Shown here: in pieces, positions 47,756-49,858 of the stretch
How positions within the stretch are numbered: the stretch's first letter is position 1
Layout: the number at the start of each line of letters is the position of its first letter
Origin: Alphaproteobacteria bacterium
GTDB taxonomy: Bacteria > Pseudomonadota > Alphaproteobacteria > JAUHZC01
Reading direction: 5' to 3'
Length of the DNA: 64,000 nucleotides
Assembly (NCBI GenBank): GCA_030425805.1
Contig: JAUHZC010000002.1
Location: 20,448-84,447, forward strand
Notes under the pieces: generated by a model
What the model saw: only the letters and a program-made list of their open reading frames with translations
Told to the model about the DNA's origin: nothing
The model's database searches: none
Made by a program: the position numbers and the translations under genes

Positions 47756-49858
47756 ATGAATAAATTCGCACTCTCTATCCTTGCGACTGTATTTACATTT
47801 TCTGCAGACGCTGGGTATTATCGCCAGCCTCAAGGGGGTGCTTATGGCGCTCAACAGCCTGCCTACGGCCAACCGAATCCATATGGACAACAACAGTATA
47901 AGCAACCTGGGTACCAACAACCACAGCAGTATGGTTATGGACAACAACAAGCCCCTCAATACCAACAACCCCAGCCTGCACCACTCACAGCACAAGATGT
48001 TGGCATGGCCGCAGGAATGTATGCTGGCCAACAAGCCGCACAAACTTCACAAGCCCAAGCTGCCAGGACTCAGGCACAGCAATATGCCCAGGGAGCTCAG
48101 GCCGTGGGGATGAATGCACAACAGCAGGCTTTTGCGCGGCAACAACAAGCCCAGCAACAGGCTGCAGGCCTCCAAGCACAGGGTCAGCAACGTGCTGATG
48201 CAGCTCAAGCCCAAGCCATGCAACAACAACAAGCTTATGAGCAACGCGTGGCCCAAGAACGTGCCCAAATGGAAGCTCAAATGGCTGCTCGCCAGCAACA
48301 AGCACAACAACAGGTTGCAGGACTTCAAGCACAAGGTCAGCAACGTGCTGATGCAGCTCAAGCCCAAGCCATGCAACAACAACAAGCTTACGAACAACGT
48401 GTAGCCCAAGAACGTGCCCAGATGGAAGCTGAAATGGCCGCTCGCCAGCAACAAGCACAACAGCAGGTTGCAGGGCTTCAGGCACAAGGTCAGCAACGTG
48501 TTGACGCAGCCCAAAGCCAAGCTCAACAAGAAATGATGCAGCGGCAACAGATGTTGGCACAACGTGGACAAGCCATGCAACAACAAGCCATGGCAGACCC
48601 ACGCACCCAAGAAGCCGCACGAGCTGCTCAAATGGCGCAACTCGCCCGAGAAAATCCAGAAGAGTTTGCGCGCCAGCAAGCCATGGGAAAATTTGGTAAT
48701 GATCCTCGAGCGCAAAAGGCTGCAGAAGCCGCTCAAATGGCGCAACTCGCCCGAGAGAACCCAGAAGAATTTGCACGCCAGCAAGCCACGGGAAGATTTG
48801 GTGATGATCCCCGGGCCCAAAAGGCTGCAGAAGCCGCTCAAATGGCGCAGCTAGCCCGAGAGAACCCAGAAGAATTTGCACGCCAGCAAGCCATGGGAAG
48901 ATTTGGTGATGATCCCCGGGCCCAAAAGGCTGCAGAAGCCGCTCAAATGGCACAGCTAGCCCGAGAGAACCCAGAAGAATTTGCACGCCAGCAAGCCATG
49001 GGAAGATTTGGTGACGATCCCCGGGCGCAACAGGCTATGCAAGCTGCTGGAGCTGCCCAGGCTCTGAAATCAGGGGACCCCTCTGCAGCGATGGCCATGG
49101 CTGGTGTCGATATGAATGATCCCAAAGTTCAGCAAGCACAGCAAGCTGCAGCTATCGCTCAGGCCATCAAAAATAAGGACTATAATAGAGCACTTGAACT
49201 TGCAGGTGACAACCCGGCCCTTCAACAAATGGTTGCCATGAAGAAAAAAGCCGAAATGGCAGAGGCTCTCAAGCGGAGAGATTTTGAAACTGCAGAGATG
49301 CTTGCAGGGGATGATGCCGCTGCCAAGGGAATGATTAGCACTGCAAGAAAGGCTGCCGCAACCGAAGCTCTGAAGAATAGAGATTTTGATCAGGCCGAAG
49401 CTCTTGCAGGAGATGATACTATAATTCTACAGATGGTTAAAATGGCTAAGAAAGGAGCAGCTATGGAAGCTCTCAAGATGGGAGACACCGCTACAGCTCA
49501 AGACCTTGCAGGAGATGACCCCGTTGTCCAAGGAATGATCAATGCGAAATTAAAAGCTGATGCAATGAAAGCCGCCGCCAGCGGAGATTTTGAGGCAGCT
49601 CTCTCTCTTGCAGAAGGAAACCCAGAACTCCAGCAAAAGCTCCAGCAAATGATGCAAGCAGCACAGACTGCGCAAGCTATGAAAGAGGATATAGAGGCAA
49701 AGGCAGCTGCGGCTCGTGCGATACAAGAAGAAATGAAAAGAAAGCAGGAGTTGATGAAAGCGAAACAAGCTGGTATTAAGGTAGAGGGTCCAAGTATCGA
49801 TGAAGGAAATGACTTCGGAGATATGGGTGGAGGGCTCGACTTAGATGAGGACTTCTAA
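47756..49858 (+). CDS. Secreted Gln/Ala-rich multi-repeat protein with acidic C-terminal tail
   Basis: Leader MNKFALSILATVFTFSADA. QP/QY-rich N-region. About 2.5 copies of a 153-nt repeat (48137-48520). About 4 copies of a near-identical 105-nt repeat (48609-49028, AQKAAEAAQMAQLARENPEEFARQQAMGRFGDDPR). About 5 degenerate copies of a roughly 36-aa repeat (LAGDD...EALK.RDF). C-terminus EGNDFGDMGGGLDLDEDF. Confidence 0.65.
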   Translation: MNKFALSILATVFTFSADAGYYRQPQGGAYGAQQPAYGQPNPYGQQQYKQPGYQQPQQYGYGQQQAPQYQQPQPAPLTAQDVGMAAGMYAGQQAAQTSQAQAARTQAQQYAQGAQAVGMNAQQQAFARQQQAQQQAAGLQAQGQQRADAAQAQAMQQQQAYEQRVAQERAQMEAQMAARQQQAQQQVAGLQAQGQQRADAAQAQAMQQQQAYEQRVAQERAQMEAEMAARQQQAQQQVAGLQAQGQQRVDAAQSQAQQEMMQRQQMLAQRGQAMQQQAMADPRTQEAARAAQMAQLARENPEEFARQQAMGKFGNDPRAQKAAEAAQMAQLARENPEEFARQQATGRFGDDPRAQKAAEAAQMAQLARENPEEFARQQAMGRFGDDPRAQKAAEAAQMAQLARENPEEFARQQAMGRFGDDPRAQQAMQAAGAAQALKSGDPSAAMAMAGVDMNDPKVQQAQQAAAIAQAIKNKDYNRALELAGDNPALQQMVAMKKKAEMAEALKRRDFETAEMLAGDDAAAKGMISTARKAAATEALKNRDFDQAEALAGDDTIILQMVKMAKKGAAMEALKMGDTATAQDLAGDDPVVQGMINAKLKADAMKAAASGDFEAALSLAEGNPELQQKLQQMMQAAQTAQAMKEDIEAKAAAARAIQEEMKRKQELMKAKQAGIKVEGPSIDEGNDFGDMGGGLDLDEDF

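Follow-up and report, generated by a model that had tools for sequence, protein, structure and literature searches.

The CpoB (YbgF) protein of the Tol-Pal system consists of a signal peptide, a coiled-coil or Gln-rich helical region, and TPR repeats. The tandem-repeat proteins of Ehrlichia are acidic, lineage-specific, Ser/Glu-rich and disordered, and they have no Sec signal peptides. Substrates of the type I and type IV secretion systems usually have no Sec signal peptide; the signals of VirB type that Rickettsiales use are basic, not acidic. In Rickettsia parkeri, the RARP-1 protein combines a Sec signal with a disordered region and C-terminal ankyrin repeats; it is periplasmic and supports growth and invasion, having earlier been assumed to be secreted (bioRxiv 10.1101/2022.02.23.481736). 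Holospora obtusa possesses a 63-kDa periplasmic protein that carries a putative signal peptide and is secreted into the nucleus of the host (PMC9866348). Here, we describe a gene in a stretch of 64,000 nucleotides (nt), hereafter the window, from contig JAUHZC010000002.1 (positions 20,448 to 84,447, forward strand) of the alphaproteobacterial assembly GCA_030425805.1. The gene, located at positions 47756-49858 of the window on the + strand, encodes a lineage-specific tandem-repeat protein that is predicted to be exported and helical and has no detectable relatives; it is not a new kind of system.

Composition and termini of the protein

The open reading frame (ORF) is uninterrupted, and the ATG at its start is the first to follow a stop codon. 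Its 700-residue product is rich in Ala (23.4%), Gln (20.0%) and Met (6.1%), contains no Cys, His or Trp, and, if cut after Ala19, yields a mature protein with a calculated mass of ~73.6 kDa and an isoelectric point of ~5.1. Residues 1-19 (MNKFALSILATVFTFSADA; positions 47756-47812, + strand) show, by inspection, the n-, h- and c-region features of a Sec signal peptide: (i) the basic n-region MNK, (ii) the hydrophobic core FALSILATVFTF of 12 residues, and (iii) the A-x-A site SADA|G, with small residues at -3 and -1 and predicted cleavage after ADA. The maximum 10-residue mean hydropathy is 2.4. The protein has no lipobox and, being devoid of Cys, is not a lipoprotein. The signal peptide reported in the original prediction, which had been made from the DNA letters and their translations, was thus recovered.

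The signal peptide is followed by a low-complexity head (residues 20-76; positions 47813-47983, + strand), in whose 57 residues Gln accounts for 35%, Tyr and Pro for 18% each, and Gly for 16%. It is predicted to be disordered: residues ~1-77 have no predicted secondary structure, with predicted local distance difference test (pLDDT) values of 32-45. The Gln/Pro/Tyr-rich string YGQQQYKQPGYQQPQQYGYGQQQAPQYQQPQ pointed out earlier occupies residues 43-73. At the other end of the protein, an acidic tail (residues 672-700, ending GDMGGGLDLDEDF; positions 49769-49858 with the stop codon, + strand) is likewise disordered (pLDDT ~41), and its last 19 residues include 8 Asp/Glu and no Lys/Arg. The acidic C-terminus noted before, DEGNDFGDMGGGLDLDEDF, corresponds to residues 682-700, but its proposed function as a C-terminal translocation signal was not supported, the tail having no match among families, models or PDB structures.

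The terminal GDMGGGLDLDEDF (residues 688-700, positions 49817-49855) has a loose resemblance to the tail of the eukaryotic ribosomal P-stalk, DDDMGFGLFD, and to further acidic tails with a terminal Phe. P-stalk mimicry (DMG.GL..D) found no statistical support and was discarded.

Tandem repeats and their age

Most of the protein is built of repeats. An Ala/Gln-rich segment (residues 77-126, positions 47984-48133), which opens a long predicted helix, is followed by Gln/Ala-rich units of 51 residues, or 153 nt (residues 127-279, positions 48134-48592), by four units of 35 residues, or 105 nt (DPRAQKAAEAAQMAQLARENPEEFARQQAMGRFGD; residues 281-420, positions 48596-49015), and by six degenerate units of 32-34 residues (residues 421-622, positions 49016-49621), all on the + strand. 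In codon register, the first array has two complete copies plus a third that is half diverged. Both DNA arrays had been proposed in the original prediction, with about 2.5 and 4 copies, and Tandem Repeats Finder confirmed them, placing 2.5 copies of a 153-nt unit at 48143-48522 (90% matches) and 4.0 copies of a 105-nt unit at 48622-49036 (94% matches). The predicted degenerate array was also found, with the consensus ..(Q)M....K.A...EALK.RDF..A..LAGDD. However, its unit is 34 and not 36 residues long, and in place of about five copies it contains four clear ones (residues 487-520, 521-554, 555-588 and 589-622) and two transitional ones (residues 421-454 and 455-486).

The arrays differ in age. 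The two full 51-residue copies differ at ~27% of third codon positions and keep 49 of 51 residues; thus, these copies are old and held by purifying selection. Among the 105-nt units, copies 1 and 3 differ at 18 nt, copies 2 and 3 at 6 nt, and copies 3 and 4 at 2 nt, both silent. The last count agrees with the difference of 1-2 nt given earlier for the final pair. The near identity of DNA copies, from which ongoing expansion or contraction had been deduced, therefore holds for 105-nt copies 3 and 4, but not for the full 153-nt copies, which differ at 16 sites. Recent duplication or gene conversion is compatible only with copies 3 and 4, and continuing change in copy number is plausible for this pair alone, given the old and conserved 153-nt copies.

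The 35-residue and 34-residue units tile in one continuous register without a spacer. In Smith-Waterman comparisons, the 35-residue unit is similar to units 421-486 (z = 4.9; 0 of 500 shuffles reached the score), as unit 455-486 is to units 487-622 (z = 8.4). The direct comparison of the 35-residue unit with residues 487-622 fell short of significance (z = -0.3), and hhalign gave it a probability of 0.8%. The two unit types are thus linked via the transitional units only; the similarity of unit 421-454 is in part a partial fifth copy of the 105-nt DNA array. Both unit types probably belong to one family, re-amplified recently at its N-terminal end. The three repeat classes proposed before are thus present as arrays, and the transitional units suggest that they may represent two families. 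The 51-residue unit has nothing but its composition in common with the others. Within this one gene, a recently amplified array adjoins an old, degenerate array and shares its register.

Predicted structure

Two very long helices are predicted at residues 79-193 and 201-277 (pLDDT ~70-84). Neither of these helices, nor the region 79-277 as a whole, shows the 3.5-residue heptad periodicity (z from -0.8 to -0.3), and a canonical coiled coil was rejected for this region. The polar Gln/Ala helices may be partly over-predicted.

In the AlphaFold prediction, residues 283-618 form regular helix-turn-helix hairpins. Each 35-residue unit is a predicted hairpin with helices of 17-18 and 11-13 residues (pLDDT 58-75). 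Residues 421-675, modelled alone, reached a mean pLDDT of 89.3, with hairpins of 20- and 8-residue helices. The best structural matches were TPR proteins. Residues 281-622 are predicted to form a TPR-like alpha-solenoid of about ten helical hairpins with unusual helix proportions. The solenoid is followed by a long amphipathic helix (residues 623-671; positions 49622-49768, + strand; pLDDT 80-90), a candidate oligomerisation (coiled-coil) element with a hydrophobic periodicity of z 6.3 at 3.4 residues and 2.3 at 3.5 residues.

Searches for homologues and for related repeats

As the original prediction had stated, no known family matched in any collection searched. Pfam, NCBIfam and the PDB sequences contained no significant family for the protein, phasins and the hook-length protein FliK included, and NCBIfam gave no match to TPR, HEAT or Sel1 models. 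The Pfam matches to a YqaH-like family (27.6 bits, cutoff 31 bits) and to EAR were regarded as noise. A word-indexed search of 5.8 billion proteins revealed no homologue among the 8000 Gln-rich candidates listed. No homologue was found in 185,579 GTDB species genomes or in JGI metagenomes, plasmids or phages, and there was no paralogue in the window. A two-unit repeat profile retrieved no further family members.

A phmmer search of 1.84 billion cluster representatives yielded 12 matches with E < 1e-3, none below 1e-30. All of them are repeat proteins, among them HEAT_PBS/HEAT_2 and TPR arrays on NACHT or AAA ATPase domains. P0002, P0004 and P0012, among others, were set aside as unrelated periodic repeats matched through periodicity alone. 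The G[RK]F..DPRA junction of the 35-residue units resembles the HEAT_PBS/TPR repeat junctions in P0003 and P0005. Two further matches, P0007 and P0010, share a unit motif with the protein, namely a long helix ending in A-[LIV]-x-x-[KRG]-D-[FYW] and a short helix x-x-A-x-x-L-x-G. P0007 consists of a weak papain-fold toxin domain and 31-34-residue repeats, whereas P0010 contains a Ser/Thr kinase, a hydrophobic stretch that by eye looks membrane-spanning, repeats, and WD40; this order suggests that the P0010 repeats may lie outside the cytoplasm.

The E-values between repeat arrays are inflated, and the following are to be read accordingly: 1e-10 in pairwise BLASTP and 2.5e-7 library-wide for P0007, and 9e-15 and 3.9e-5, respectively, for P0010. 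In hhalign comparisons, the 34-residue units matched the P0007 units with 55% probability (E 1.2e-4 over 52 columns) and the P0010 units with 30% probability. Repeat type and period are thus common to the three proteins, whereas their domain contexts are wholly different. No Pfam model covers the repeat in P0007, and none does so among the 25 families listed for P0010. This 31-34-residue helical repeat may deserve a repeat-family definition.

The ORF is a real gene held by purifying selection

The repeats provide an internal test of coding. Of the 16 nt differences between the two full 153-nt units, 14 fall at third positions and are synonymous, where a synonymous fraction of 0.21 would be expected (binomial p = 2e-8). 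The same holds for the 35-residue units, where 7 of 8 differences between units 2 and 4 and 12 of 18 between units 1 and 3 are synonymous. In the other five frames, these differences are mostly non-synonymous, including the frames of two antisense ORFs inside the repeats (positions 47985-48986, - strand, 333 residues; and 48047-48841, - strand, 264 residues), which are by-products of the stop-poor CAA/GCN-rich repeat sequence. The GC content at third codon positions (0.39) is typical of the genome, and the choice of Ala and Gln codons is like that in the neighbouring housekeeping genes. The local GC content of 52% is driven by first codon positions (0.76); thus, it reflects amino-acid composition and not foreign origin, and recent horizontal transfer was rejected.

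The same organism has also been assembled independently from short reads, as Logan contigs L001 and L002 of run ERR3420974. Both contigs carry the flanking genes at 100% identity, and the N-terminus and the last 290 residues of the protein are identical in them. L001 stops at window position 48211, within the first 153-nt copy, and L002 begins near position 48985, within the last 105-nt copy. Breaks in both arrays point to true long repeats, which split de Bruijn assemblies. They also account for an exact look-up in a collection of 15 billion proteins, in which the neighbouring proteins are present and the full protein is not on record, since the broken contigs leave two truncated fragments. 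In practice, the splitting of this gene by short-read assemblies keeps it out of protein catalogues and serves as a warning.

Organism and genomic context

The housekeeping genes of the window include gyrB, the gene for PBP1, that for isocitrate dehydrogenase, clpX, ychF, secG-pyrG-kdsA, acpP-fabF, and mltG. Its PyrG is at most 61% identical to that of any GTDB species representative, the best matches being uncultured Rickettsiales or Alphaproteobacteria metagenome-assembled genomes (MAGs); the organism is an uncultured Rickettsiales-like alphaproteobacterium. The 80 PyrG loci compared share secG-pyrG-kdsA, and none of them includes the DUF502 gene, the repeat-protein gene, the regulator gene described below, or a Gln-rich ORF.

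Genes for BolA and DUF502 proteins lie upstream of the repeat-protein gene, and an LqsR-like regulator and a DUF179 protein are among its neighbours. Directly upstream of the gene is an AT-rich intergenic leader (positions 47667-47755, + strand) with a weak AGG 8 nt ahead of the ATG; a scan for the sigma-70 consensus gave no good site there. The gene for the LqsR-family-like response regulator (positions 49886-50857, + strand) starts 27 nt after the stop codon, and the gap contains no terminator-like site. The two genes are probably co-transcribed. The regulator, a Pfam Response_reg protein, consists of a receiver domain with an insertion and a C-terminal domain, and over residues 4-268 it matches PDB entry 6sy9_A (E 3.4e-26), which we take to be Legionella LqsR, the database title reading only 'Response regulator'. 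No lqsA- or lqsS-like gene is found beside it, and its sole database copy is itself. Regulators of the LqsR family govern life-stage and virulence switches (PMC10653808). No secretion-system or chaperone gene adjoins the repeat-protein gene, and secretion genes are absent within ~10 kb.

Five further large ORFs in the window have no Pfam family: 44874-46616 (- strand, 580 residues, with a signal-like N-terminus), 51600-53456 (- strand, 618 residues, with an Ala/Ser-rich tract and a KRKKKKKK run), 3221-5452 (+ strand, 743 residues), 10261-11676 (+ strand, 471 residues), and 16511-17710 (+ strand, 399 residues). They may encode more lineage-specific envelope or host-interaction proteins. A 450-residue HIT / DcpS_C protein (positions 39229-40581, - strand) has an unusual architecture, in which the C-terminal domain follows a long N-terminal extension whose start (…FLLGC) is lipoprotein-like.

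Proposed role and alternative explanations

Our leading explanation, held with slightly less than even confidence, is that the protein is a Sec-exported, elongated, all-alpha envelope scaffold in the periplasm or possibly at the surface. Periplasm or cell surface is the most probable location because there is no further secretion signal and no secretion system nearby. In the proposed mechanism, the TPR-like solenoid would be the working part and bind partner proteins or peptides, and the amphipathic helix 623-671 would oligomerise the protein. Basic residues recur at fixed positions of the 34-residue unit (K12, K20, and R/K21-22), and the acidic tail might insert into this basic solenoid, either in cis or in trans, as EEVD tails bind TPR clamps; such docking could control the protein or make it polymerise. 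Weak multivalent contacts would come from the disordered Gln/Tyr-rich head, and expression would probably be coupled to the adjoining LqsR-like regulator and hence to a life-stage switch.

Several observations weigh against this scaffold. The Pfam TPR, HEAT and Sel1 models do not match, either for the full protein (E < 0.1) or for residues 421-644 (E < 10). Both structure models are single-sequence, an Ala/Gln-rich sequence is readily over-predicted as helix, and the confidence for the 35-residue array is only moderate (pLDDT 58-75). AlphaFold leaves the tail undocked, at the low pLDDT given above. The signal peptide is recognized from its features only, and co-transcription with the regulator is proposed from spacing alone. 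Finally, host-directed effectors are likewise characterized by orphan status, low complexity and amplified repeats.

The main rival to an envelope scaffold is indeed an effector or surface adhesin directed at a eukaryotic host, which would be exported by Sec and then released or exposed; we consider it a real but rather unlikely alternative. Release could proceed as for the proteins that infectious forms of Holospora store in the periplasm, for which the signal-peptide-bearing 63-kDa protein of H. obtusa is a precedent, or by a TolC-dependent step, and the solenoid together with the FUS/Sup35-like Gln/Tyr-rich head would engage host proteins or condensates. Such a function would suit an orphan that has no homologue in any collection searched, that sits amid other family-less ORFs in a genome whose PyrG is so distant even from uncultured Rickettsiales MAGs, and that combines a recently amplified repeat class with a low-complexity, eukaryote-like head. 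However, a Sec signal speaks against export straight from the cytoplasm by a type I or type IV system, the acidic tail has no match among known signals, and no gene for a secretion system or chaperone adjoins. The repeats are under purifying selection with no sign of an arms race, and RARP-1, long presumed secreted, proved to be periplasmic. The host-interaction or surface role of the original prediction thus keeps a place among the explanations, with support no stronger than that for a periplasmic location.

Self-assembly into an extracytoplasmic matrix or condensate appears improbable. The head and the Gln/Ala helices would then drive amyloid-like or phase-separated assembly, periplasmic or at the cell surface, with the solenoid as a spacer, as might be expected from a head so rich in Gln, Tyr, Pro and Gly and predicted to be disordered, and from ~200 Gln/Ala-rich residues without amphipathic periodicity. 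The argument is one of composition alone, and it is the solenoid, not the low-complexity part, that is best conserved and best predicted. Slightly more doubtful still is an undescribed class of exported proteins combining a FUS/Sup35-like head, a non-canonical (20 + 8) hairpin solenoid and an acidic tail, with which an intracellular alphaproteobacterium would form a condensate or gel-like layer in its envelope or which, once released, would enter host condensates, its assembly being controlled by contact of the tail with the solenoid groove.

The reading as no gene at all, that is, a chance open frame in CAA/GCN-rich tandem DNA or an assembly artefact, could appeal to the long antisense ORFs (333 and 264 residues) that share the same repeats and to the absence of the exact protein from the catalogue that holds its neighbours, but it is close to refuted, because the synonymous bias is confined to the + frame, the gene ends are identical in an independent assembly, the non-repetitive 34-residue units are predicted to fold with high confidence, codon usage is native, and contigs broken in the arrays explain the catalogue absence.

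Comparison with known systems

The TPR and HEAT solenoids (clan TPR, CL0020) are similar to the protein in their tandem helix-turn-helix units of 31-35 residues, and the turn 'G-D-Y-x-x-A' of TPR units is similar to its motif A-L-x-x-[GKR]-D-[FYW]-x-x-A-x-x-L. The helix lengths are different, 20 + 8 residues in comparison with ~13 + 13 in TPR, and the hhalign probability of the 34-residue units against the TPR units of P0005 is below 1%.

CpoB/YbgF is like the protein in its layout, in which a signal peptide comes first, a Gln-rich helical stretch next, and TPR-like repeats last. However, our protein is ~2.5 times longer, and its Gln/Ala region has no heptad signal. Its identity with CpoB/YbgF was rejected, as it matches no YbgF/TPR_6 model and no tol-pal genes are nearby. 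Unlike the Ehrlichia tandem-repeat proteins, it has a signal peptide and a predicted folded helical array. It also did not qualify as a type I or type IV substrate, given the signal peptide, the tail without any match, and the lack of secretion genes in the vicinity.

The closest parallel in layout is RARP-1, also a Rickettsiales protein without an enzymatic domain. Both proteins combine a signal peptide, a disordered or low-complexity part, and a C-terminal repeat domain, and they likely follow the same logic. The repeats are ankyrin in RARP-1 and TPR-like in our protein, with no sequence similarity, and the genomic contexts also differ, rarp-1 belonging to a tolC operon and our gene lying between the DUF502 gene and the LqsR-like regulator. 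Uncultured Rickettsiales-like symbionts carry many family-less proteins. Among them, the protein described here is a concrete candidate for a factor of the envelope or of contact with the host, being large, under selection, partly assigned a confident fold, and encoded beside a regulator of the life-stage type. It thus offers a test case for whether repeat proteins with Sec signals are periplasmic, like RARP-1, or reach the host.

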